Assembly: GCA_049997795.1 (NCBI GenBank)
Contig: JBEKVT010000001.1
Location: 4,085-68,084, forward strand
Source of the DNA: Minisyncoccia bacterium
GTDB taxonomy: Bacteria; Patescibacteriota; Minisyncoccia; Phycocordibacterales; PALSA-1337
DNA: 64,000 nucleotides
Reading direction: 5' to 3'
Shown here: one piece after another, positions 4,629 through 64,000 of the stretch
Layout: the number at the start of each line of letters is the position of its first letter
Numbering within the stretch: position 1 is the first letter of the stretch
The notes under the pieces: model-generated
The model's database searches: none
Seen by the model: only the letters and a program-made list of their open reading frames with translations
What the model was told of the DNA's origin: nothing
Translations under genes and position numbers: made by a program

Positions 4629-4751
4629 AAACGATCCGATGATCCTCCGGCCCGTTCGCACGGATCCAGTATTGACATATGCGCACGGATGCGTAATGTT
4701 TCAATCGAAAGTACGTAGTTCATCCCATCAACCCATAGTCAGGAGATACAC

Positions 4752-8387: not shown

Positions 8388-12083
<3,696 letters not shown>

Positions 12084-15396: not shown

Positions 15397-15612
15397 GACG
15401 GATTTTTGTTTACCGCAAGTTTATATGCACGGGTAGGACCAAATCTCTACCTTTGTAATCCTCCGCCGCAGGCAGGACTCACTCTGCGAAGTTAGAGAGA
15501 GCCTAGCAGAGCCGAGAATAGATGTCAAGTAGATGGCGTGTTTGACAAGATAGGTAAAGTATTTTTAAAAAAGCCGAGCGGTGATGCCCGGCTTGGGAAT
15601 GATGCCCTTTTG

Positions 15613-15906
15613 TCAGTATGTGCCTAGACTCATCTTTCTCAATCGCCCTTGATTTGCTTGGTCCCGGCGGATTTGAGCTTCGACGGATCTTTCGATCCTT
15701 CGGCATTCCCTGGCCCTTTTGGCAGGCGTACCAAAGCATCGATTCAATTCTTCCTGAGTAAGTGGTCGGCCTTCCCTTTCGGCCTGGGTGAATGTTTGCA
15801 GGGCATTAGTGAGCCCGTTTTGCATTGGATCATGGAACATTTGTGCCTCCTGATCAAAGGATACCACAGGAATTGGAAAAGTCACTTCTTCCGTTTCGAT
15901 TTCCAC
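15613..15906 (-). CDS. Hypothetical small protein (97 aa) between trmD and rpoB
   Basis: ORF only. It overlaps the trmD 3' end by about 25 nt. It is not L19 (rplS), which normally follows trmD. Confidence 0.25.
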   Translation of the reverse strand: MEIETEEVTFPIPVVSFDQEAQMFHDPMQNGLTNALQTFTQAEREGRPLTQEELNRCFGTPAKRARECRRIERSVEAQIRRDQANQGRLRKMSLGTY

Positions 15907-16590: not shown

Positions 16591-17049
16591 CTAGATTCTT
16601 CGAACCGGCAATCGGATAGCTGGGGCGGAGCTGGGCGGAGCTTTCATGTCCACCTTATTAAGGAAATAACGGTCGAGAGACCAGATGTCCGGACCGGCGA
16701 GAAAGACCGAGAAGGTGGCGATCGAAAGGCCGAGGTCGCGGACGCCCAGAGGCGAGATGCCGATCGTGCCGGCGATGCCGAAAAGGTGGGCGGCCAAAAG
16801 CAATGAGACCGTCCTGACCTGGAAGCCGGCGATGAGCATGAGACCGGCTACGAGCTCGAACCAGGCGTTCAAGAGGACAAGCATCGTCGCATTGCCGCCC
16901 AAAAGACCGGAGACGGATTGAGGCACAAAGCTCGTCCACATCGACGGGTTGCGGAATTGATAGTAGCTGAAACAGACGAAGACAAGTCCCATGCCGAGGC
17001 GGAGTATGACGGCGCCGTATGGCTGGATTTTTGAAAAGAGATTAGTCAT
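16591..17049 (-). CDS. DoxX-family membrane protein
   Basis: About 4 TM helices, from a likely start MTNLFSK. The track ORF is extended upstream to 17112. Confidence 0.55.
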   Translation of the reverse strand: MTNLFSKIQPYGAVILRLGMGLVFVCFSYYQFRNPSMWTSFVPQSVSGLLGGNATMLVLLNAWFELVAGLMLIAGFQVRTVSLLLAAHLFGIAGTIGISPLGVRDLGLSIATFSVFLAGPDIWSLDRYFLNKVDMKAPPSSAPAIRLPVRRI

Positions 17050-17617
17050 CGTTGTAAGCGCGATTCGATCCGGTCCTGCCTGTCGGAACGCTCGGAGCTG
17101 CGGCACTGGCATTGCCGGATGATGAAGCGGATGAAGAAGCGCTCGACAGATCGCCGATATAGAAAGCCGCCAGTTCGTTGGCCGGCCGGGACTGGCCGCC
17201 GTGCTGGTTGTTGAACGCCGCCGAGCCGTCTATGCCGCAGATGCTCAAAATCGCCTGCTGGCCGCCGGGATGCTGGCCGATCCAATTAGTCAGGTCGTAT
17301 ACCTTGCTGTTTATGGCCGTCCAACAGCTTGAAGCGCTATTATGTTTGGCCACGTCAGCCATGGTATAGCCAGATGATTGCGTCTTAGCGTTCGAGCCGG
17401 AGCCTGGACTTGAGTTTAAGCCGGAACTTGAACCAGATTTTGAACCTGACGTTGGGACCGGTGCGGTCTTGCTTGGAGCCGAGGTGGAACTATCCGAACC
17501 CGACGGATTCTGAACGAGCGATTGAGACACCGGCGGCGCATTCTTGGCCGACAAGGCTATGATGGAAGCACCGACCAGAAAGACGGCGCAGATAGCGAGG
17601 GTGATCTTCGTTCTCAT
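17042..17617 (-). CDS. Secreted Ser-rich protein with a C-terminal cytochrome b5-like heme-binding domain
   Basis: N-terminal signal/TM segment, an S/G/T-rich linker, then ...HNSASSCWTAINSKVYDLTNWIGQHPGG... The HPGG motif is the b5 signature. Confidence 0.65.
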   Translation of the reverse strand: MRTKITLAICAVFLVGASIIALSAKNAPPVSQSLVQNPSGSDSSTSAPSKTAPVPTSGSKSGSSSGLNSSPGSGSNAKTQSSGYTMADVAKHNSASSCWTAINSKVYDLTNWIGQHPGGQQAILSICGIDGSAAFNNQHGGQSRPANELAAFYIGDLSSASSSASSSGNASAAAPSVPTGRTGSNRAYNDD

Positions 17618-54552: not shown

Positions 54553-55650
54553 ATGAATATCGTAGCCCGGAACAGGCCGACAATCTCGCTGGGGACGCTG
54601 GGCATCGCAGGCGCCTGCGCTGTCCTCGCTATAGCCCTTTTTGCCGTTACCGCTCCGAAAGTCCATGCTTTTGGCCATAATTTCGGCGGGGATAGTTATA
54701 ACAACAATAGCGGCAGCCACAACGGCAATGGGGGCGGTTTTCCAAACAGTGGAGGCAATAACAATGGGAGCGGAAATAATTGGGGCAGTAACAATGGCGG
54801 TAACGGCAACGGTCGGAATAACAATAATAATGGCGGCGGCCAAAACAACAACACCGGCGGGCCCGATTCACATTGGCTGGACCATCGGATCACCCAGCCC
54901 CCTTTTCAGAATTATCATTACCCCGTTCCGTCTTTTCCACATTTTGACCATCCTCATTACCAGCCGCCCGTGATCCAACCAGTCACATATTATCAGCCGA
55001 CCCAATATATCTATCAGTCGGTTCCGACTTATTCCTATCAAAGCTATCCAGACTATTATCAGTATCCCACTAGCTACAGTTACCCGACTACGTACTATCA
55101 GCAACCGACTCAGATATACGCATATCAGACGCCTTCATACCCCTACTACACGAATAACCAATATACCGTCACCGGCCAATCCAATAATTCGAATGAACTG
55201 AACATCAGCTGCTCCGCCGAACCTTCCGCGTCAGCCGTCGGCCAGCCCGTCACGTGGACCGCCACGGTCACCGGCGGCGCGGCGCCTTACACGTACTCGT
55301 GGTCCGGATCCGACGGGATCTCCGGCTCGCAGGGCTCGGTCACGAAGTATTACGATTCCGCCGGCGAGAAAACCGCCATAGTCATGGTGACTTCCGCAAA
55401 CGGCCTGACCAGCACACATCCTTGCGACAACACGTTGACGGTGCAGGGCGGCGGCCAGGGAGCCTATCTCCCGCAGACCGGCGCTGCCGCTCCCTCGCAG
55501 ACACCGGTCGAGAACGGCAACCCGAATGCGGCCGCGGCCGCGCTCTCCAACGTCCCTTGGGGATGGCTAGCGTCCCTCATCATCCTGGTGCTTCTTGGGA
55601 CGATGGCGTATCTTCTGTTCGAGCGCCAAAAGGTAAAGATCAGTCCTTGA
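54553..55650 (+). CDS. LPXTG-anchored cell-surface protein with Gly/Asn-rich and Tyr/Gln/Pro-rich low-complexity regions and an Ig-like domain
   Basis: Signal peptide, a GGNNNG... tract and a YQ(Q)P/T repeat tract. The C-terminus has LPQTG, then the hydrophobic WLASLIILVLLGTMAYLLF, then the charged ERQKVK: a sortase sorting signal. Confidence 0.7.
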   Translation: MNIVARNRPTISLGTLGIAGACAVLAIALFAVTAPKVHAFGHNFGGDSYNNNSGSHNGNGGGFPNSGGNNNGSGNNWGSNNGGNGNGRNNNNNGGGQNNNTGGPDSHWLDHRITQPPFQNYHYPVPSFPHFDHPHYQPPVIQPVTYYQPTQYIYQSVPTYSYQSYPDYYQYPTSYSYPTTYYQQPTQIYAYQTPSYPYYTNNQYTVTGQSNNSNELNISCSAEPSASAVGQPVTWTATVTGGAAPYTYSWSGSDGISGSQGSVTKYYDSAGEKTAIVMVTSANGLTSTHPCDNTLTVQGGGQGAYLPQTGAAAPSQTPVENGNPNAAAAALSNVPWGWLASLIILVLLGTMAYLLFERQKVKISP

Positions 55651-56062
55651 ATAGCTCTCTATACTTCTCCCATTCCCCTTCTTCGATGTCACGGAAGATC
55701 TCCTTCTCGTGGATCTGTGATTTTTGATAAAGCTCGTCGTCCAGCTCTCTGGGACGAAGGTGGAAGTGAAGGTGGCTCACCTTAAGCTTGCTGTCAGGTA
55801 TGAAGGGCCGAAAATTTTGACAGATGTCACAACCCTTAGCGAAGCTGTTGAGGATTTTTTCTTGTACGTTCACCACTTCCTCAAGGAGGCCGTCCCTTTC
55901 TTCTTTTGTAAGCTCGCTTAATCTTTCTACATGACGCTTTGGTATGACCAGTAGATGTCCGGGCATTAATCGTGGATTGCTCAAGACGGTAAGAGCGTAT
56001 TTTGTGTCATGGATTATCTGCTCGCCATCATGGGCGATGATCTTGCAGAATCGGCATTCCAT
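55640..56062 (-). CDS. HIT-family hydrolase
   Basis: 140 aa with the histidine triad HLHFHL. Its GC is lower (~47%) than the surrounding chromosome. Confidence 0.8.
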   Translation of the reverse strand: MECRFCKIIAHDGEQIIHDTKYALTVLSNPRLMPGHLLVIPKRHVERLSELTKEERDGLLEEVVNVQEKILNSFAKGCDICQNFRPFIPDSKLKVSHLHFHLRPRELDDELYQKSQIHEKEIFRDIEEGEWEKYRELFKD

Positions 56063-56096
56063 TCATCTATTATAGCAGAAGTCCCGTCTCAAAACG

Positions 56097-56138
56097 TCGG
56101 TCGGCTGCATGGCACGATGTTGGAACCATTGTGCAACG
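56097..56138 (+). repeat. Cassette-associated conserved element, copy 1 (divergent: ...CGGCTGCATGGCACGATGTTGGAACCATTGTGCAACG)
   Basis: Read directly; 22/26 identity to the core consensus. Confidence 0.7.
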
Positions 56139-56248
56139 GGAGGTGGAGGAGTATCTATGGCAAGACTCCTGCCAACCCTGACTAGCAACCTCTATAACCA
56201 CACATCCTTATTTTATCTTCTTCCGTATATATCCTCCGCAACCTAAAT

Positions 56249-56443
56249 TTATTTCTTTCCTTTTATATTAATCAGGACCAGGCAGATGATTATAAAAATT
56301 ATTGAAACACAAAACATGATCCAAGAGTATGAAATCGCATGCTGATTTTGAGTAATCTTCCAAACATTTATTATGCTCATCAGACCGATCCCTATCCAAA
56401 AACTGATAGCCCACTCCAATTGTCTTTTGCTTTTATTTATCAT
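56249..56443 (-). CDS. Tiny two-TM membrane protein (64 aa), very AT-rich; paralogue of the next gene
   Basis: MINKSKRQLEWAISFWIGIGLMSIINVW.... GC is about 30% against roughly 62% for the chromosome. Confidence 0.4.
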   Translation of the reverse strand: MINKSKRQLEWAISFWIGIGLMSIINVWKITQNQHAISYSWIMFCVSIIFIIICLVLINIKGKK

Positions 56444-56628
56444 TTTTTAACTCTTTTTAGCAATATGATATTCAATAATAATCCCATGACTGCAACCCCG
56501 ATTATCCCATAGTTATAAAGCAATATATTGCCCTGCGGAGTATGTCGATAATTCATAATGAGATTTATAAGACTATAAACACCTCCTCCAATCCAGAATC
56601 CTATCCCATATTTATATATTTCATTCAT
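56440..56628 (-). CDS. Tiny two-TM membrane protein (62 aa), very AT-rich; tandem paralogue
   Basis: MNEIYKYGIGFWIGGGVYSLINLIMNY.... It overlaps the downstream gene by 4 nt. Confidence 0.4.
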   Translation of the reverse strand: MNEIYKYGIGFWIGGGVYSLINLIMNYRHTPQGNILLYNYGIIGVAVMGLLLNIILLKRVKK

Positions 56629-56684
56629 TATATAATCTTATCCTCCTTATGATCATTATCCCTTGATTTCCATGATTGGCTGGC

Positions 56685-56717
56685 AGTGTGGTACAACGTT
56701 GGAACCATTATGCAACG
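56685..56717 (+). repeat. Cassette-associated conserved element, copy 2 (TGGCTGGCAGTGTGGTACAACGTTGGAACCATTATGCAACG)
   Basis: Read directly. Confidence 0.8.
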
Positions 56718-56733
56718 AGAATTGAAATGATGT

Positions 56734-56967
56734 CTATCGCGGGGCCGGCAAGCCGGCGCTCTTGTAGCACACATTCTCGCATGATTGTTCCTGCTTCGCC
56801 GCCGCATCCCTGCCCGATGAGTCAAAAACGCCCTGGCACAGAACGACACAGTCGCCTACCGCGGTCGTCGCTTCTTGGTCTTGGTTATGGCTATGTATCC
56901 CGATCTCTATGCCGATCAAGATAAGGATGACGACGATTATCAAGATCAACGCCTGCGTTTTTGTCAT
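56734..56967 (-). CDS. Small secreted/membrane 4-Cys protein (77 aa)
   Basis: A hydrophobic N-terminus, then ...GDCVVLCQG...SCENVCY. Confidence 0.35.
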   Translation of the reverse strand: MTKTQALILIIVVILILIGIEIGIHSHNQDQEATTAVGDCVVLCQGVFDSSGRDAAAKQEQSCENVCYKSAGLPAPR

Positions 56968-56996
56968 GTTTTTTCTTTATCTATCCCTATTCTTCC

Positions 56997-58028
56997 TCAC
57001 TGGACCGCCGAGGACGCGCCGACTGAAAACGTCGCCGTGTCGCCGCTTATCTCTGTGAGTTTGATGCCGTAGTTCGGAGTGCTATATGTTTGGCCGACGG
57101 AAAGAGTCTGCGGCGTGATCGGAACGACGGCGATCATGCAGCGGATCCGGGGCGGCTTGTCCGACGGGAATGAGTTCCAGCATCCGACCGGCGTGATCTC
57201 TATGGTCGCCGAAGACGGGGATAGGTCTTGCAAAGTGAAGTAAAAGCTCTCGTTTCTAACCTCCGCGATGCCGCCCTGCCGTAACGACACGCTTCCGGGC
57301 ACATCGAGCTCCTTGATGGCGGAAGGAACATCAAGGTCTCCCTGCGGCTCAGTGCTCGCGTAGGCATCCGCCTCCGCTTGTAGCGCGGCGGACAGGACCG
57401 AGGGATCAACGGAGGCTCCCGCAAGCGAGACGGTCTTCGCGAGGACGCCGGCGTTGCTCCCTCCCCCGTCGCCGACGACGAGAAAGTCCGTCGTGCTCAA
57501 GGGAATGATGCTCGTATCGAAGCGGCGGCCGCTCGGTAACATGATGAGGCCAGACATCGTGGCGTTCGAGATGTCCGCCGTGGTGGTCGCGCCCGAAGTC
57601 CCCGAGCTTGTCCCCTCCGGATATGCGACCATCCATTGCCCTGATGCGGGACTATAGAAATATTTCGTCTGAGCGATCGGGCTCGCGTGGCCGTTTTGCT
57701 CGTCGGTTATCGTTTGGGCCGCTGAATCGACGACGTAGATCATTACGCCTCCCGGAGAACCGACTTGGAGCGTTTTTACCAGGGTACCTCCGGGAAACAA
57801 CGCCGTATCCTTCGTGGTTGTCGAGAGGATTTGCCAGGAGCTCGGGTACCAAAAAGCGAAGCCGAGATCCGGATCGGTGTATCGGATCATGCCGTAGGTA
57901 TCGGCCGTGGGAGCGCCTGTCGGAGAAGATGTTCGCGGGCGAATGAGGAAATACGCTCCACCGCCGACTATGAGCAGCGCGAGCACGACGAGCGCCCACG
58001 TCTCGACCTTGCCGAGTTGATTCTTCAT
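56997..58028 (-). CDS. Secreted hypothetical protein (343 aa, GC-rich)
   Basis: N-terminal signal/TM segment MKNQLGKVETWALVVLALLIVGGGAYFLI. No catalytic motif recognised. Confidence 0.45.
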   Translation of the reverse strand: MKNQLGKVETWALVVLALLIVGGGAYFLIRPRTSSPTGAPTADTYGMIRYTDPDLGFAFWYPSSWQILSTTTKDTALFPGGTLVKTLQVGSPGGVMIYVVDSAAQTITDEQNGHASPIAQTKYFYSPASGQWMVAYPEGTSSGTSGATTTADISNATMSGLIMLPSGRRFDTSIIPLSTTDFLVVGDGGGSNAGVLAKTVSLAGASVDPSVLSAALQAEADAYASTEPQGDLDVPSAIKELDVPGSVSLRQGGIAEVRNESFYFTLQDLSPSSATIEITPVGCWNSFPSDKPPRIRCMIAVVPITPQTLSVGQTYSTPNYGIKLTEISGDTATFSVGASSAVQ

Positions 58029-58046
58029 ATCTTCAATTGTAGCATT

Positions 58047-58073
58047 CTAGCTGCGTGGTGCTATGTTGGAACC
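58047..58073 (+). repeat. Cassette-associated conserved element, copy 3 (TAGCTGCGTGGTGCTATGTTGGAACC)
   Basis: Read directly. ACG is replaced by GCT in the core. It ends 4 bp before the stop codon of the 680-aa gene. Confidence 0.8.
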
Positions 58074-58076
58074 TTT

Positions 58077-60119
58077 TTAACGTTTTGTCACCCCGATCTT
58101 TATGTTCCCGTCGGCAAAATTACCAGCCCGATCAAAAGCTCGTACGGTGATGACATGCGTCCCTATGGGAAGCGAGACGGAGAGCGGCGATGCGGCGGGC
58201 AAGAAAACGCCGTCGTCAAATCGGACGTAATAATTTCCTTGCAAACCGCTTGAATTATCTTGGCTTTCGAATGCCAGCCGTATCACCTCGCCCTCGGATA
58301 CCGCGGTTTTGCTCGCTTTGATGACGGGTTGCAATGGCGGCGTCGTGTCTATCATCACCTTATAATTGGAGACTGCGCCGCTCGTCCCGTTTTTTACCGG
58401 CGCGATATGGAAGTAATAGATGCCATCGGTAAGGCCGGAAAAAGAAACCGAGTCCGCGGATGTCGTGCTTGCTCCAACGAGAGAAGAAGCCGTAGGTATG
58501 TTGTCAAGTGAATAAAGATAGTGATAGCCGTTAGAGGTTATCCACGTAAAGAGGCCGTCCGGCTCGTTGTACCATCGCGCGCTATTGGGATATGTTGGAG
58601 AAAAGACCGGGATCGAGGAAGTGCTATTGTATATCGTCGATTTATCGACAATGCGATAACTGCCATCGGTGGCAAGGCGGAGGACGTCTGTGCCTAATTC
58701 ATCATTCGCCAATATCCGCGTACTTGTACTGAAATGCAACGTCACCTCTCCTTCCTTAAGAGGCTGTAGGACGAGCGTGAACACGTTCCCGTTTAGTCCG
58801 GAAAAGCCCGGGGTCAGAAGGCCGCAAGTCACTCGCACCTCGCCGCGTTTATTATCAATGCTTTTTTCCAGAAACATCGTCGGCGCGCAAAAAGAGTCCG
58901 CGGTGATGATATCTACCACCCGGATCCTTGCCGAATCATAAGTCAAATCGACCTGGGCAACATTAATGGCTTCTCCGCCCGTCAATACATCTATCGCTAC
59001 CTGTTGTTCGGATGATCTGCTCCAGGCGGCGAAGCTCGGGTCGAGCGTCAGAGTAGAATTATAAATCGTGTAAGGCGGTCTTCGGATGGAAAGCGAATGG
59101 TTGTAAAGCAGCGAGCTGTCGACAGAAAAGGCCGCGACCAAGACGATGGAAGAACAAATGATCAAGATGATACGCTCTATCGCGTGGCGCTTTTTTGTCG
59201 CCCCGCGAGTATGGAAAAAAAAGACAATGAGGACGAAGATGAGGGCGACGATCGAGGAAAAGATCGCGGCCTGCACGGTATAGCCAGCTGGATAAAGGAT
59301 GAGCATCCCTCCAGGACTTTCATAAAGGCCGTGGAAGACGAGATTTTTTATGAAATACGCCCTCCCTTCTACGATCGCCTCACGGTCAGATTGCCCTTTT
59401 TGGACCCAATCGGAGCCCGTGTTGAAATACGCCGCAAGCAGGAGCTTGGTGTTCGGATCCCCGAAGGTCGTTCCGACCACGCCGTCCTGTTTCGAATAGA
59501 AGATGAGATTCTCTCCGTCAGTCAAATATCTGCTCTTAAAGGCGCCGGCATAGGCGTCGTCAACCGAGTAGCCGCCGAACACGGCTCCTATCGTCCGGCC
59601 ATTGTCGATCACTGGGTAGCCGGCGATAACCAAGAGCGAGACTGAGCTGCCGCGCTCTATAGAGATCACGGGTTTCCCTTCCGCCACCCTGCGCCCATAG
59701 CTTGTCGCCTGAAATATATAATCTCCGCTACGAGAGGAAGCCGGGGTTTGTGACAGGACTATCCCTCTGTCATCCGTAACAATGATGGTGTCGAGGCGGT
59801 GAATGGTTTGCTCGCTCTGTAGCGTTGAGGCGAGATGCGAGATGTCTCTCGTCTCAATGAGCTTCGCAAGACTGGAAGAGGTGGCGATCTCTCCCGCTTG
59901 TTGAAACACGTATCGTGAATCGGCATCAAGACCGCGCTGTATTTGCCCGACTGCGCTGTCGAAGAATCTCACTTCGAACCAGTGCGTGACCTGATATGAA
60001 AAAAGCGACACTATCGAAAACGCGACGACCGTCGCCGCCATCACGATAAGGATGAATCTTTCTTGTCGTGCGAATTTTATGATCCGGACAAACATCTCGC
60101 TTATATGAAGGCCTTGCAA
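58077..60119 (-). CDS. Large membrane-anchored extracytoplasmic protein (680 aa), hypothetical
   Basis: N-terminal TM plus a second TM cluster mid-protein, with beta-rich extracellular regions. Confidence 0.45.
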   Translation of the reverse strand: MQGLHISEMFVRIIKFARQERFILIVMAATVVAFSIVSLFSYQVTHWFEVRFFDSAVGQIQRGLDADSRYVFQQAGEIATSSSLAKLIETRDISHLASTLQSEQTIHRLDTIIVTDDRGIVLSQTPASSRSGDYIFQATSYGRRVAEGKPVISIERGSSVSLLVIAGYPVIDNGRTIGAVFGGYSVDDAYAGAFKSRYLTDGENLIFYSKQDGVVGTTFGDPNTKLLLAAYFNTGSDWVQKGQSDREAIVEGRAYFIKNLVFHGLYESPGGMLILYPAGYTVQAAIFSSIVALIFVLIVFFFHTRGATKKRHAIERIILIICSSIVLVAAFSVDSSLLYNHSLSIRRPPYTIYNSTLTLDPSFAAWSRSSEQQVAIDVLTGGEAINVAQVDLTYDSARIRVVDIITADSFCAPTMFLEKSIDNKRGEVRVTCGLLTPGFSGLNGNVFTLVLQPLKEGEVTLHFSTSTRILANDELGTDVLRLATDGSYRIVDKSTIYNSTSSIPVFSPTYPNSARWYNEPDGLFTWITSNGYHYLYSLDNIPTASSLVGASTTSADSVSFSGLTDGIYYFHIAPVKNGTSGAVSNYKVMIDTTPPLQPVIKASKTAVSEGEVIRLAFESQDNSSGLQGNYYVRFDDGVFLPAASPLSVSLPIGTHVITVRAFDRAGNFADGNIKIGVTKR

Positions 60120-60270
60120 TATGCTTTTATAGTATCACAGTATTCGAAATGAGGATTCACTCGGAATCGGTCCAGATTTCGCCCAGTGACTTCTATTCCT
60201 CGGGCTCGAACAAACCCCCGTGGCGTGGCTCAAAATATGGTGGTGCTTCGGTCTCCGATACTAAATTTAT

Positions 60271-60300
60271 TTGGCTGGCCGTGTGGTACGAAGTTGGAAC
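60271..60300 (+). repeat. Cassette-associated conserved element, copy 4 (TGGCTGGCCGTGTGGTACGAAGTTGGAACT)
   Basis: Read directly. The stop codon of the SRPBCC gene starts 1-3 bp after the element. Confidence 0.8.
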
Positions 60301-60302
60301 TT

Positions 60303-60749
60303 TTATTTCTTAAGCATCTTCCTCAATTTGTCGATAACAGCCTTCTCCCAATACTTCATCGAGTACCATCTTATTAATGGTCTTGCGACGATACGCAGCC
60401 AAGGCCTATGGATAGAGACCTGATACGTATAGTCAATGATGGTTCCCTCTGGGTTCTCGGAAAGCAAGAGTTCTTCATGCCCGGAAGTCCCGAACTTGGG
60501 GTTTTCGTTGTCTGAACTGAATCCTCTTCCGGGGATGATCCGAGTCATCATCCTTACTGGGAATAGCCGCCCGAACGACTTCACTCCGGCTTCCATCTCC
60601 AGATAATTCTCTTCGCGTTTCGTGACTTTGATCGATTCGGCGACCTTCGGGAAATATAATGGGAACTTCTCAAAATCGGTTATTATCTTGAAGACTTGTT
60701 CTCTAGGTGCTTTGACAAGCCATCGGCCGTGGAGAGTGATTTCTTTCAT
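60303..60749 (-). CDS. SRPBCC-superfamily protein (polyketide cyclase/dehydrase-like)
   Basis: 148 aa with a Polyketide_cyc2-like pattern (...WLVKAPREQVFKIITDFEKFPLYFP...). Confidence 0.6.
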   Translation of the reverse strand: MKEITLHGRWLVKAPREQVFKIITDFEKFPLYFPKVAESIKVTKREENYLEMEAGVKSFGRLFPVRMMTRIIPGRGFSSDNENPKFGTSGHEELLLSENPEGTIIDYTYQVSIHRPWLRIVARPLIRWYSMKYWEKAVIDKLRKMLKK

Positions 60750-60776
60750 GATTCAAGTATATCAAAAAAATTTGTT

Positions 60777-60801
60777 AGCTGCGTGGTACGATGTTGGAAC
60801 C
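60777..60801 (+). repeat. Cassette-associated conserved element, copy 5 (TAGCTGCGTGGTACGATGTTGGAACC)
   Basis: Read directly. It lies about 40 bp upstream (plus-strand coordinates) of the MTase gene's stop codon. Confidence 0.8.
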
Positions 60802-60841
60802 ATTATGCCCGATACTCAATCAAAACAGATCTCGTATGGTT

Positions 60842-61564
60842 TTAGCTGACTTTTGTTGCGATAACTCCTATATATCTTTTATATAATGAATCGGGAAGAA
60901 GCGACAATAATAGACTGAATAGATTAATGACTTTCGATATACACCGACGCGTGACACCTTGTTTGGTCACGAACCGAAAATAAAATCTTCCGACATATCC
61001 AGAGTAATCGATCCTGCAACCTTTTGCGATCATCACAGATGTGATTGCCTTTAGGTTCATAGATGACAGAACATGGTTCTTAAGGACATCCGGTTCAAAT
61101 AACTTGTACAAGAAGTAATAGATCGGGGAATTGAGGTTGGGCACATCGATGATTATCTTTCCTCCGGGCTTTAGAAGTTCCAAATGCTTATCCAAGACCT
61201 CCTCCAAATCATTGAAGTGCTCGATAAATCCGAACGAGCATACCAGATCGTACTTGATCTGTGATTTAAAATCGAAGATATCTGCTTCATAGAAATGATT
61301 ATATCTGTATCCCCTGCTCTTGAACCAACCAGATAAAGAATCCGTGCCGTGAAATGAATCGACTCCGTTTAATTCATATCCTTTTTCGCCAAAAACAGCT
61401 AAAAATTTTCCTGGGTAGCAACCGATCTCCATGCAATTGGCAGTAATCGTGTCGGGTATTTCTTTCTCGATCCATAGGCGAATCGGGTGATTACGCGGCG
61501 CGATCTCGAAAACCGTTTCTTTCCAATGATTACTCCAGTATTCTTCTGTCGAGACTGATTGCAT
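60842..61564 (-). CDS. Class I SAM-dependent methyltransferase
   Basis: CMEIGCYPGKFLAVFGEKGYELNGVD is motif I. The likely start is MQSVSTEEYW. The track's 15-codon N-terminal extension runs through repeat copy 6. Confidence 0.65.
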   Translation of the reverse strand: MQSVSTEEYWSNHWKETVFEIAPRNHPIRLWIEKEIPDTITANCMEIGCYPGKFLAVFGEKGYELNGVDSFHGTDSLSGWFKSRGYRYNHFYEADIFDFKSQIKYDLVCSFGFIEHFNDLEEVLDKHLELLKPGGKIIIDVPNLNSPIYYFLYKLFEPDVLKNHVLSSMNLKAITSVMIAKGCRIDYSGYVGRFYFRFVTKQGVTRRCISKVINLFSLLLSLLPDSLYKRYIGVIATKVS

Positions 61565-61570
61565 TCTATT

Positions 61571-61599
61571 GGCTGGCCGTGTGGTACGATGTTGGAACC
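61571..61599 (+). repeat. Cassette-associated conserved element, copy 6 (GGCTGGCCGTGTGGTACGATGTTGGAACC)
   Basis: Read directly. It ends 36 bp before the SET-domain gene's stop. Confidence 0.85.
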
Positions 61600-61635
61600 T
61601 TTTTAACAAATCTGGGCTCTTAAATGCGATAATTT

Positions 61636-62022
61636 CTACTCAATCCTTAAAAAATAACCCTTGCAATTAGGACTCTTGCAATTACATAGAACCCGGACTC
61701 CGCCCTTCTCAGTCTGGTTATAATCACAGGTGATTTCTTCACCTAGCATTATGTCCCTTACAGATTTCAGGTGCGGTTGAACCATTGAAATATCTAAAAC
61801 TGTATTGGGGTCACAGGAATGATTAATCCAATTGAGTACAGCATTATCGTCTACATACAAACCCTTCCCAATGTGGGCAAATCTTGGAGTGGGAACGTTT
61901 ACAACAGTATCTACAGGAACTATATAAAATACTTCTCCTTTATTGATTGGCCGTTCGGTAAAAATACCCATATTATCTATGGGACTTTTTCTTTTTTTGA
62001 GAAATGGGTGATTATTCGGCAT
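61636..62022 (-). CDS. SET-domain protein (putative protein-lysine methyltransferase)
   Basis: 128 aa with NHSCDPN and GEEITCDY, the SET signatures. A post-SET-like CNCKSPNC follows. Confidence 0.65.
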   Translation of the reverse strand: MPNNHPFLKKRKSPIDNMGIFTERPINKGEVFYIVPVDTVVNVPTPRFAHIGKGLYVDDNAVLNWINHSCDPNTVLDISMVQPHLKSVRDIMLGEEITCDYNQTEKGGVRVLCNCKSPNCKGYFLRIE

Positions 62023-62683
62023 ATTCTCTTAGCACAGCATCGACAAGAACATTCATTGGATCTATCTTATTGATTGGCAACTCTTTTGACATTAAAGCTA
62101 CTTCGGAACACCCAAGAATGATGGACTCCGATACTTTTGAGTATTTTCGAGCAAGGTTCTGTGTGAATGTCTCCTGCTTCTTCTTATCAATTCCGAGGTT
62201 GTAATTCGATATTGCTCGAGACAAATCTTTTACTTCCGATTCTAATAATTCATTGCATTTAATACCGCTAAACTTATATAAGCCGCTTGCCAATGTATAA
62301 GGAGTGCCAAAGACTGTGACAGATTTAACCTGAAGATTATGTAAACATTTTTCAACTTCTGCCCGAAGATTAATTATAGGTACTTTTGTTGCCCGCTGCA
62401 GGGTATCGAGGTATACATAAGCAGTGTTGCAAATAATTGCAATGATATCTGAACCACTTTTCTCCAATTGCTTTAAACCATCAACATAAGGAGAGAGAAT
62501 CTCGTGTGTACCATTATTAAAAATAAGTTCAGGAGCAGAAATGCTGTTTATTATCACATGGGGGTATTCACTATTATCCTTAGGCTTATTTTTCTCAATA
62601 AATTTTCTTATCAATTCTAAGTAGAAAAAACCAGTAGACTCAGGCCCTATTCCCCCTAGTAGCCCTATAGTCTTCTTTTTCAT
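62012..62683 (-). CDS. Asp/Glu/hydantoin racemase-family protein (aspartate racemase-like)
   Basis: 223 aa with two Cys-containing active-site blocks (...IIAIICNTAYVYLD... and ...IILGCSEVALM...). It overlaps the SET gene start by 11 nt. Confidence 0.65.
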   Translation of the reverse strand: MKKKTIGLLGGIGPESTGFFYLELIRKFIEKNKPKDNSEYPHVIINSISAPELIFNNGTHEILSPYVDGLKQLEKSGSDIIAIICNTAYVYLDTLQRATKVPIINLRAEVEKCLHNLQVKSVTVFGTPYTLASGLYKFSGIKCNELLESEVKDLSRAISNYNLGIDKKKQETFTQNLARKYSKVSESIILGCSEVALMSKELPINKIDPMNVLVDAVLREYAE

Positions 62684-62723
62684 ACAAAAACTCTACTACA
62701 TAAACGCGGGTTCGGGAAGTAGT

Positions 62724-62751
62724 GCTGGCTGCGTGGTACGATGTTGGAACC
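62724..62751 (+). repeat. Cassette-associated conserved element, copy 7 (GCTGGCTGCGTGGTACGATGTTGGAACC)
   Basis: Read directly. It lies in the divergent intergenic region between the racemase (-) and the SGNH hydrolase (+). Confidence 0.85.
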
Positions 62752-62915
62752 ATAATAACGCAAAAATTGGAATAAACAAAAAGCCGCCCGAATTAGCCGG
62801 CTGCGCGGCAAGAAGTGGATGTGTCTTTCGCTCAGTCCTTTTTGTCCTATCCGGACTAGTATAGCCGGGCGAGCGGCTTCTATTTATCGATGATGGATTT
62901 CCTGCTAAAATCACC

Positions 62916-63740
62916 TTGAGAGACAAAGATCAGCGAGGCCTTATGGGAACTAAAAAGATCATCGTCCTATACGCGATCGTCGCCGTCGGCTCGGCATTGG
63001 CAGTCGGCTGGATCTTCTCATATGTCGGACGCGGCGCGCCCGGACCGAAGGGCCTCACCACGAGCGTCCTGTTCATCGGCAACAGCCTGACTTATGTCAA
63101 CGATCTGCCGCAGACTCTCTCCGATATCGCCCGATCGCTCGGCGACACGGCCGAGACCGATATGTACGCTCCGGGTGGTTATACGCTCAAGCAGGACGCA
63201 CAAGACCCGACGGCTCTGGACAAGATAGCGTCCAGGCCTTGGGATTTCGTAGTCTTGCAAGAGCAGAGCGAGCTGCCCGCTCTTCAAGACTCCCAGGTGG
63301 ACGACGAGGTGACGCCTTATGCATTGGAGCTCGCGAGCGATGTCCGTCAGGCTGGGCCTGACACCAAGGTCGTATTCTTCGAGACATGGGCTTACAAGGG
63401 CGGCGATCCACAGTATTGTGCTTCGACTCCGACCTTGTGCGATTTCGAATCCATGCAAGACCAGCTGTCGAGATCGTACGGCCTCTTGGCGCAAAGGTCC
63501 GGCGGGTTGCTGGCCCCGGTCGGCGAAGCGTGGCGATCGGCGCGGGATGCCTATCCTGAGATCGAGCTCTATCAGAGCGACGGCAGGCATCCGTCGGCGG
63601 AAGGCACCTACCTCGCGGCCGCTGTGTTCTACATGGTCTTGTTCAAGAAGGACGTCGCCGGCGCGGCATCTTTAGGCATCGACCCGGCACAAGCGAAGAT
63701 CCTGCAACAGGTCGCGAGACAGGTGGTCTTCAGACAGTGA
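62916..63740 (+). CDS. SGNH/GDSL-type hydrolase (DUF4886-like), secreted
   Basis: N-terminal TM/signal, then ...VLFIGNSLTYVNDLPQ (GNSL in place of GDSL) and a C-terminal ...SDGRHPSAEG (catalytic D-x-x-H). Confidence 0.6.
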   Translation: MRDKDQRGLMGTKKIIVLYAIVAVGSALAVGWIFSYVGRGAPGPKGLTTSVLFIGNSLTYVNDLPQTLSDIARSLGDTAETDMYAPGGYTLKQDAQDPTALDKIASRPWDFVVLQEQSELPALQDSQVDDEVTPYALELASDVRQAGPDTKVVFFETWAYKGGDPQYCASTPTLCDFESMQDQLSRSYGLLAQRSGGLLAPVGEAWRSARDAYPEIELYQSDGRHPSAEGTYLAAAVFYMVLFKKDVAGAASLGIDPAQAKILQQVARQVVFRQ

Positions 63741-63761
63741 TGGCGCCGATGATCTTTTGTT

Positions 63762-63790
63762 GGCTGGCTGCGTGGGACGAAGTTGGAACC
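63762..63790 (+). repeat. Cassette-associated conserved element, copy 8 (GGCTGGCTGCGTGGGACGAAGTTGGAACC)
   Basis: Read directly. A double stop (TAA TAA) of a minus-strand gene begins 2-5 bp after it. Confidence 0.85.
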
Positions 63791-63794
63791 TTTA

Positions 63795-64000
63795 TTAAAG
63801 GATTTTAAAGCCTAAGACGATAAATTCGTCCTGTGAATGAATTTGTCTGGAATAATATTTCTCGAACGTTTTCGTCTTTTCCTCTTCTGATCTATAAACC
63901 TCATGTCCGACCCTATTCAGTGGTAATTTTCCAAAAGTCATCCTAGACTTCTCGATAATCGTTGCGGTGGCAACATTCTTTCCATCGTTCTCAGCCAGAA
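63795..64000 (-). CDS. 3' end of an unknown gene running off the window edge (at least 68 aa seen)
   Basis: The minus-strand frame ...LAENDGKNVATATIIEKSRMTFGKLPLNRVGHEVYRSEEEKTKTFEKYYSRQIHSQDEFIVLGFKIL** is stop-free up to the edge. Confidence 0.4.
   Translation of the reverse strand, partial: LAENDGKNVATATIIEKSRMTFGKLPLNRVGHEVYRSEEEKTKTFEKYYSRQIHSQDEFIVLGFKIL

Follow-up and report, generated by a model that had tools for sequence, protein, structure and literature searches.

The right-hand end of the 64,000-nucleotide stretch of Minisyncoccia chromosome analyzed here (the window; GenBank contig JBEKVT010000001.1, positions 4,085 to 68,084) carries a short, directly repeated element, for which we use the working name E, that separates small accessory genes of unrelated families. 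The row of copies continues past the window edge and begins at a tRNA-Gln gene; by sequence, E resembles the 3' end of that tRNA, and it recurs nearly unchanged in many other Patescibacteria. With moderate confidence, we regard the copies of E as att-type sites that bound integrase-less mini-cassettes, accreted in tandem immediately downstream of tRNA-Gln. The tRNA likeness, the tRNA anchor, and the conservation across the radiation together shift E from an unrecognized repeat towards the att-type site of a tRNA-targeting cassette system. We infer mobility at E from the anatomy of the arrays, not from observed events, and the same holds for recombination at E as the means of cassette movement, for the position of the crossover, and for the kind of enzyme.

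Copies of E in the window

Throughout, "as written" refers to the plus strand of the window; tRNA-Gln sits on the opposite strand. A search of the window with GTGGTACGATGTTGGAACC, allowing up to three mismatches, returned exactly eight matches, all on the plus strand, at 56109, 56688, 58055, 60283, 60783, 61581, 62733, and 63772, each with 0 to 2 mismatches. The expectation from shuffled sequence is 0.01 matches, and the eight same-strand copies described in the initial annotation are thus real. The copies span 56098-63790. Alignment of all eight with 60-nt flanks gave a conserved block of ~33 to 36 nt, TTGGCTGGCYGYG TGGTACGATGTTGGAAC C WTTWT, with no conservation outside it, and the three left-arm sub-variants noted earlier are also seen in this alignment.

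With a position weight matrix derived from 95 copies of other genomes, the window copies score 22 to 54 bits. E1 (56098..56127; 27.4 bits), which reads CGGTCGGCTGCA TGGCACGATGTTGGAAC C, is the copy farthest from the tRNA. It is followed by E2 (56677..56706; 40.1 bits), E3 (58044..58073; 21.8 bits), E4 (60272..60301; 49.8 bits), E5 (60772..60801; 38.6 bits), E6 (61570..61599; 53.5 bits, the best fit to the cross-genome consensus), E7 (62722..62751; 43.3 bits), and E8 (63761..63790), the last copy within the window. The first copy had been called the most diverged; it is indeed among the two most diverged, but the third scores lower still, the others lying between 38 and 54 bits. In positions 1-55000, on both strands, the matrix found zero further copies even at 10 bits, in agreement with the earlier statement that nothing like E occurs in the first 56 kb.

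Two minor features were seen beside these copies. A second conserved module of ~35 nt, CATTRTGMAACGRGARNTGRA...TCTAT, directly follows E1 (where it begins CATTGTGCAACGGGAGG), E2, and E10, at window positions 56128-56165 and 56707-56745 and at 11846-11880 of locus L001, respectively. Behind seven copies of E from Parcubacteria and Saccharibacteria loci stands a related module, TTATGCAAT-N10-GGTTCTGTCYAGA, each time preceding a different same-strand open reading frame (ORF). The second module is present in only 10 of 145 copies examined and could be a promoter, an operator, or a longer form of the site. The other feature lies in the HIT gene (55640-56062, minus strand), the first gene past the tRNA-distal end of the array, where TGGGACGAAGGTGGAA at 55744-55765 matches the core of E at 14 of 17 positions. 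It codes for the histidine-triad motif HFHLRPR, and the 16-mer echo at 55750-55765 is not significant (nhmmer E value, 0.21) and is probably due to chance.

The array begins at a tRNA-Gln gene

Sequence past the window edge was read from the same contig in public metagenomes, e.g., JGI Ga0427927_000007 (657 kb). The whole array comprises 13 co-oriented copies of E in ~10 kb: the eight of the window, four more that align without gaps, and a thirteenth with a 1-nt insertion. These additional copies, E9 to E13, are on the plus strand at window-equivalent positions 64142, 64770, 65170, 65862, and ~66450. A tRNA-Gln(ctg) gene (window-equivalent 67112-67183) lies 0.6 kb past E13 on the strand opposite to E as written, with its 3' end towards the array; between the two is a gene for a 197-aa membrane protein, 21 nt downstream of the tRNA 3' end. 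On the strand shared by tRNA-Gln and most cassette genes, E reads AAAGGTTCCAACATCGTMCCA..GCCAGC, and the order along that strand is prfB-ftsE-ftsX-pyrG, tRNA-Gln, the membrane-protein gene, E13, HD_4, E12, and so on to E2, the small ORFs, E1, and the HIT gene.

Resemblance of E to the tRNA-Gln 3' end

Written on the strand of the tRNA, E is AAAGGTTCCAACATCGTCCCAGACTGCCAGC followed by AA, and the partial tRNA-Gln ends found at the heads of some arrays read GGTTCGATCCCTAGTCTGCCAGC. In an alignment of the two, 18 of 23 positions agree once a 5-nt insertion is allowed in E. Their last 8 nt, CTGCCAGC, are identical, and the conservation of E stops exactly at the last base of the tRNA. The mean Smith-Waterman score of E against 66 tRNA-Gln 3' ends is 16.7, compared to 10.9 ± 1.2 (maximum, 15.4) for 300 shuffles of E, which places tRNA-Gln ~4.8 standard deviations above the shuffled sequences. 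For tRNA-Thr, tRNA-Met, and tRNA-Asp, each represented by at least 10 genes, the scores are 11.8 to 13.2, and the remaining tRNA types score 9 to 14, except for tRNA-Ser at 16.4 (n = 5).

Sequence comparison therefore suggests that the 3' end of tRNA-Gln is either the source of E or the model that it imitates. It is not a literal partial copy: in the genomes examined, variation in the acceptor stem of the resident tRNA-Gln is not mirrored in E, and we rejected that possibility, while the resemblance remains. The lack of covariation points to a distinct, conserved mimic of the tRNA-Gln end rather than a displaced end of the host's own tRNA.

E in other Patescibacteria

When one genome per species was scanned for the exact pattern, at least 118 loci were returned, of which 60 were left after chance and coding hits had been removed; with L001, these form the set of 61 E-bearing loci used here. 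E is nearly identical in at least 60 loci, almost all of them labeled Patescibacteria (a few records carry other labels), including Saccharibacteria, Paceibacterota, WWE3, and the Nomura-, Kaiser-, Adler-, Lloyd-, Moranii-, Magasaniki-, Berkel-, and Levyi- groups. The consensus over the 60 loci is TTGCTGGCAGTC TGGGACGATGTTGGAAC CTTTWT, and its 17-nt core is identical between Saccharibacteria and Paceibacterota. There are 1 to 10 copies per locus, with two or more in 34 of the 60, and in 60/60 all copies are on one strand, which, together with the empty 56 kb of the window, marks E as array-like rather than dispersed. Spacing from one copy to the next is 140 to 2228 bp, with a median of 562.

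The anchoring at tRNA-Gln also recurs. Among the ~40 loci with enough flanking sequence, 22 have a full tRNA-Gln gene at the same end of the array and in the same orientation, and six further loci, including L057, where it adjoins tRNA-Pro, have a 23-nt partial tRNA-Gln 3' end at that position. All but one of 24 nearby tRNA-Gln genes are co-oriented with E. Farther out past tRNA-Gln lie either pyrG-ftsX-ftsE-prfB or dnaX-dus-ftsQ. Two arrays (L057 and L061) come from a single metagenome-assembled genome (MAG), Parcubacteria C7867-008.

Presence of the array is sporadic. Only 4 of 80 pyrG-anchored syntenic loci of relatives contain E, and ~45 of them keep tRNA-Gln downstream of pyrG. In L176 a cassette with its E stands between tRNA-Gln and a GIY-YIG gene that in L205 and L210 comes directly after the tRNA; these are distant relatives, and the exact junctions of this occupied/empty comparison cannot be aligned. 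Copies closer to the tRNA fit the consensus slightly better (Spearman coefficient, 0.27, P = 0.01; Wilcoxon P = 0.036), which agrees with insertion on the tRNA-proximal side.

Some of these loci have features of their own. The GIY-YIG gene, encoding a YhbQ-like nuclease of ~78 aa, is a conserved neighbor of tRNA-Gln, just downstream of it, in many relatives (L176, at 15406-15641; also L193, L166, L172, L180, L205, and L210). It also accounts for a conserved block of ~235 nt after E in L176, which we had considered as an RNA gene and rejected. Partial duplications of tRNA-Gln, running from the anticodon arm to the 3' end or covering only the last 23 nt, occur just downstream of the full gene at L191 (~4700-4745), L043 (6285-6307), and L179, and at L057 (4875-4897) beside tRNA-Pro; they indicate that tRNA-Gln is a hotspot for ordinary integrative elements, too, in these bacteria. 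Finally, the 17-nt core is found by itself inside a conserved phage or prophage coding gene of Rhodobacterales and Myxococcus (...VWDDVGTFDGRPWRG...), in L017, L022, L030, L034, L045, and ~68 IMG/VR contigs (L218, L229, and others). These matches share coding sequence in their flanks, are unrelated to E, and are a trap for pattern searches.

Genes between the copies of E

The window cassettes contain unrelated accessory genes of differing Pfam families, one or two per interval, as the initial annotation had proposed, and their G+C content ranges from 0.34 to 0.58, compared to 0.57 to 0.58 in the flanks. Across the loci the functions include Fic, LexA-like and ClpP-like proteins, hydrolases, methyltransferases, and glyoxalase. 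About 70% of the coding sequence runs opposite to E as written, both on the two flanks and inside the arrays, and ~30% of the cassettes are inverted.

The stop codon of an opposite-strand gene falls 0 to 5 nt from the GGAAC of E in 30 of 101 cases; in the window, it is 3 nt to the right of E3 for the 680-aa gene and 1 nt to the right of E4 for the SRPBCC gene. The next co-oriented gene begins at a median distance of 61 nt downstream of E, and cassettes on the strand of E carry their own sigma-70-type promoters (TTGACA-N17-TAnAAT) just after it. Terminator-like hairpins are commoner beside E (30 of 145) than at random positions (28 of 730); they lie in some cases between the gene and E, in others on its far side. 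Since terminators occur on either side, E is not tied to transcript ends, which indicates a function at the DNA level; abutting stop codons and cassettes with their own promoters and terminators likewise argue for a site that acts on DNA and not on RNA.

Proposed cassette model and the points against it

Under the reading of E as an att-type site, a cassette unit would comprise one or two genes, preceded by a short leader or promoter, with a single E at the far end. E would mimic the tRNA-Gln 3' end down to the same terminal base (...CAGC), and by this mimicry a cassette circle bearing one E could recombine either with the tRNA-Gln 3' end, as the primary site, or with a resident E. The crossover would fall within the common terminal CTGCCAGC/CGCAGC segment and leave the tRNA intact. 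Newcomers would enter beside the tRNA, older cassettes would be shifted outwards and their sites would decay, and the recombinase would be supplied in trans from a gene elsewhere. Successive insertion of this kind fits the order of tRNA, cassette, and E, the orientation of E with the tRNA, its abutment on the ends of different genes, the mixed G+C content, the accessory functions, and the sporadic presence.

It is possible, if less likely than not, that the arrays form an active gene-capture platform of the Patescibacteria that has not been described before, equivalent to integrons in function and distinct in mechanism. Single-gene cassettes, each with a conserved, unstructured site of ~33 bp that mimics tRNA-Gln, would be inserted at the tRNA-Gln 3' end and shuffled by a trans-acting recombinase, and would come from a radiation-wide pool.

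Several results weigh against att-type sites bounding mobile cassettes. No recombinase is found near the arrays: Pfam lists for window positions 18 to 64 kb and the 10 kb past the edge contain no Phage_integrase-type gene, and phmmer searches with XerD and lambda Int found none in the window or among 530 ORFs of the 61 loci, with the positive control detected at 1e-41 (positions 1 to 18 kb were covered by phmmer only). E also lacks the inverted-repeat core typical of simple tyrosine-recombinase sites. Its alignment with the tRNA needs the 5-nt gap, and an alternative alignment exists. Across samples, the contigs of the strain share at least 99.98% identity and an unchanged cassette order, free of indels, and all-against-all blastn and blastp comparisons of the 61 loci revealed no clearly homologous cassette common to two arrays; the matches are essentially flank synteny, tRNAs, and E itself. 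Two stricter E patterns had 0 hits in the 2.9 million viral contigs of IMG/VR, and no attP donor is known. Proximal-to-distal decay is seen in only 11 of 19 arrays with at least three copies, a weak trend. The racemase-SET gene pair of the window has homologues (56 to 71% identity) in four other contigs, all without E; we count this for accessory behavior, and it is at the same time a weak point.

Two candidates that would have supplied a donor or a shared cassette were rejected. A looser core pattern matches IMG/VR only in the coding sequence of Rhodobacterales phages, so we do not regard it as a phage attP, and the non-coding cassettes of L024 and L120 have only E and a terminator stem in common. 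ORFs for large serine recombinases lie 2 to 5 kb from single E copies in L066 (6818-7999), L116 (3972-4928), and L119 (6967-7998); they are too distant and too rare to be tied to E and show that other mobile DNA is nearby. DUF2726-like ORFs recur in five loci.

Alternative explanations

The array could be a set of fossil scars, in which each E is an inactive attR remnant of a larger, integrase-bearing element that was stacked at tRNA-Gln and kept only its distal cargo. We think this unlikely, although much of the anatomy would suit it: the array is tied to a tRNA, which E itself resembles, classical partial duplications stand beside tRNA-Gln in L191, L043, and L179, distal copies are more decayed, all contigs of the strain have the same array, and tycheposon islands are built likewise (bioRxiv 10.1101/2020.12.28.424599). 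However, a core identical across Saccharibacteria and Paceibacterota is too conserved for neutral scars, the same 5-nt insertion sets E apart from every resident tRNA-Gln 3' end, no integrase fragment was seen in the 61 loci, and the units are tiny, each ending tightly at the stop codon of a different gene. The lack of a recombinase near any array would be accounted for if E and tRNA-Gln served as portable homology anchors, that is, as short arms for RecA-dependent cassette swaps after DNA uptake with no dedicated enzyme. Patescibacteria are naturally competent, E (~33 bp) and tRNA-Gln (72 nt) each show near identity from one lineage to the next, and within the array the left-arm variants of E occur independently of those in the right flank. 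Against this, ~33 bp is near the lower limit for efficient homologous recombination, and the idea leaves unexplained the mimicry of the tRNA 3' end with its exact stop at the last base, the strict single orientation, and the first arrival of E at a naive tRNA-Gln locus; we consider it quite improbable.

E might be a protein-binding regulatory or insulating site of one regulon, such as a response regulator target of the form TGGGAC-N5-TGGAAC or an alternative sigma factor site using GGAAC; it does contain direct hexamer repeats with an 11-bp period, two extracytoplasmic function (ECF)-type sigma factors and OmpR-type regulators are encoded in the window, and the short median distance to the next co-oriented gene would be suitable. 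Yet the full 33 bp is conserved, including the spacer, with no -24/-12 or -35/-10 pattern. A likeness to sigma-54 promoters in TGGCAC-N5-TTGG fails because the GG-N10-GC spacing is off by one, and most genes face the other way; an ECF promoter, suggested by the GGAAC motif, and a promoter for the cassettes in general were rejected, since there is no conserved downstream -10 element and the cassettes have canonical promoters of their own. E also occurs beside genes of opposite orientation and empty intervals of 140 to 240 bp, its copies are confined to tRNA-linked arrays and are not regulon-wide, and terminators precede it in some cases and follow it in others, so that a regulatory site seems a poor explanation. 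A dif site for chromosome dimer resolution, stacked with integrative mobile elements exploiting Xer (IMEX), or likewise a Ter site, was suggested by the maximum of cumulative GC skew near 52 to 56 kb, close to the array, and by an ATGTTG motif. Direct repeats, absence of an integrase, and a ~30-bp site conserved across the phylum would all be expected of it, and the right half of E, ATGTTGGAAC, is faintly like the XerD arm, TTATGTTAAAT. It is nevertheless largely refuted and very improbable: the two inverted 11-bp Xer-binding arms and 6-bp spacer of a 28-bp dif-type site are absent from E, flanking genes are non-convergent across 60 loci, one MAG has two arrays, E is missing from most syntenic loci, and the arrays are linked to a tRNA. 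The skew follows gene strand, the coding strand being G-poor (+0.06 to +0.07 where all genes are on the minus strand, -0.06 to -0.07 where all are on the plus strand), and the cumulative skew therefore cannot be read as a replication signal in this genome. That E is a dispersed selfish repeat, like a repetitive extragenic palindromic (REP) sequence or a miniature inverted-repeat transposable element (MITE), and dense here by chance, is hardly credible: it is a short intergenic repeat of many genomes, but it has no palindrome or hairpin, was never seen in inverted orientation among the 60 loci, does not occur in the remaining 56 kb of the window, and forms clusters, usually anchored at a tRNA.

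Other known categories were tested and excluded. In the 95-copy profile the best arm complementarity is at most 50%, i.e., there is no dyad symmetry, and DNA folding of 111-nt windows around the eight copies, on both strands, gave z scores of -1.4 to +2.6 with no shared hairpin. These results support the initial view that E is neither a REP or bacterial interspersed mosaic element (BIME) nor an attC site; the palindrome or terminal inverted repeats, dispersal, and dual orientation of REP, BIME, and MITE sequences were not found. The motif GTTGGAAC resembles the R' box of attC (GTTRRRY), but an R'' partner, a hairpin, and IntI are all lacking. The Rfam 15 covariance models give no match at an E value up to 1 in positions 55000-64000, and a structured RNA was rejected. 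The initial annotation was also right to set aside a clustered regularly interspaced short palindromic repeat (CRISPR) array, since the spacing of 140 to 2228 bp with gene-bearing intervals differs from CRISPR spacers, which are non-coding and ~25 to 70 nt. Genome-wide scatter without cassette context and a match to a known regulatory motif, the two outcomes named in advance as telling against a cassette-type element, were not what we found.

Comparison with known systems

The E arrays are best described as tRNA-anchored, att-bounded accretion with an integron-like layout. In the streptococci, the cis-mobilizable elements (CIMEs) of integrative and conjugative elements are integrase-less, att-flanked units that accrete in tandem at tRNA genes. 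Prochlorococcus has tycheposons, which form tRNA-seeded islands with partial tRNAs between the remnants (bioRxiv 10.1101/2020.12.28.424599). As in such islands, the 3' end of a tRNA gene is the starting point of the E array, the units are set apart by direct repeats that share one orientation and are related to that end, the cargo is unrelated and of mixed composition, older units appear to be displaced outwards, and many units have no integrase. The anatomical features of tRNA islands are present except for the integrase and the literal tRNA copies: E is not a copy of the resident tRNA but a radiation-conserved sequence with a 5-nt insertion, its units are mostly single genes (up to 13 in a row), no integrase-bearing master element was seen in the 61 E loci, and the hosts are Patescibacteria.

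Integrons, and clusters of attC sites lacking integron-integrases (CALINs), share with the E arrays the rows of mostly co-oriented one-gene cassettes, the recombination-site-like repeat that ends each cassette and abuts a stop codon, the unrelated accessory functions, the occurrence of non-coding cassettes, and a primary site at one end, with site quality hinting at proximal insertion. The layout is integron-like and the type of site is different. E is not an imperfect palindrome and does not fold, so that sequence is conserved rather than structure; there is no IntI beside E arrays; the primary site would be a tRNA 3' end instead of attI; and many of the cassettes have their own promoters and terminators, with ~30% of all cassettes in inverted orientation. 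The attC structure and IntI that define integrons were both looked for in this work and neither was found. The dif/IMEX systems and the pdif modules of Acinetobacter also consist of integrase-less modules with ~30-bp sites served by a host recombinase in trans, but E has no XerC/XerD-type inverted arms, is not at the replication terminus, is linked to a tRNA, and occurs only as direct repeats, whereas pdif modules alternate in orientation.

Patescibacteria (the candidate phyla radiation, CPR) make up a large share of bacterial diversity and have tiny genomes. To our knowledge they have few recognized mobile elements, and the route by which they acquire accessory genes is largely unknown. Our literature search found no paper with the sequence of E, or on such arrays, a dif site, an integron, or a tRNA-Gln island in Patescibacteria. 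E may be useful as a searchable marker of the flexible gene pool of these bacteria, since the 17-nt core alone finds such loci, as a handle for finding the responsible recombinase by profiling E-positive against E-negative genomes, and possibly as a landing pad for genetic tools in those few Saccharibacteria that can be cultivated. If the cassette model is true, the arrays would be a second, independently evolved answer to the integron problem, with a linear, tRNA-mimicking site in place of the folded attC.

Individual cassettes and neighboring features

Cassettes are numbered here by the copy of E on their left. Cassette 1 (56128..56676, minus strand; G+C content, 0.34) has two small ORFs, 56249-56443 and 56440-56628. 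Cassette 2 (56707..58043, minus; 0.58) has ORFs of 77 and 343 aa, neither with a Pfam match, the longer with a signal-peptide-like N terminus. Cassette 3 (58074..60271, minus; 0.51) encodes one protein of 654 to 680 aa with a Cache-like sensor domain, cassette 4 (60302..60771, minus; 0.45) one 148-aa SRPBCC or polyketide-cyclase-like protein, and cassette 5 (60802..61569, minus; 0.40) one S-adenosylmethionine-dependent methyltransferase. Cassette 6 (61600..62721, minus; 0.37) holds the Asp/Glu racemase and SET-domain genes. Cassette 7 (62752..63760, plus; 0.57) has one DUF4886 or SGNH-like hydrolase gene (62943-63740), the sole cassette gene of the window on the strand of E as written. Cassette 8 (63791..64000 within the window, minus) starts with an ASCH-domain gene that crosses the window edge.

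The racemase and SET-domain genes of cassette 6 (61636-62683) form a conserved pair, also seen in P0007, P0015, P0022, P0030, L214, and L216; in some organisms the two are fused into one protein, and elsewhere a serine hydrolase gene comes next. At other loci, some intervals of 140 to 240 bp between two elements have no ORF and contain promoter-like sequence and a strong terminator on the opposite strand (with E on the plus strand: L024, 2554-2709; L120, 2140-2301; L061, 1754-1908; L088, 546-756). Rfam gave no match for these intervals, which may be small-RNA cassettes.

Beyond the tRNA-Gln gene, outside the window, ftsE lies between the arms of a 99-bp inverted repeat (96% identity), at 17018-17116 and 17846-17944 of L001/L002 (window-equivalent 69960-70886).

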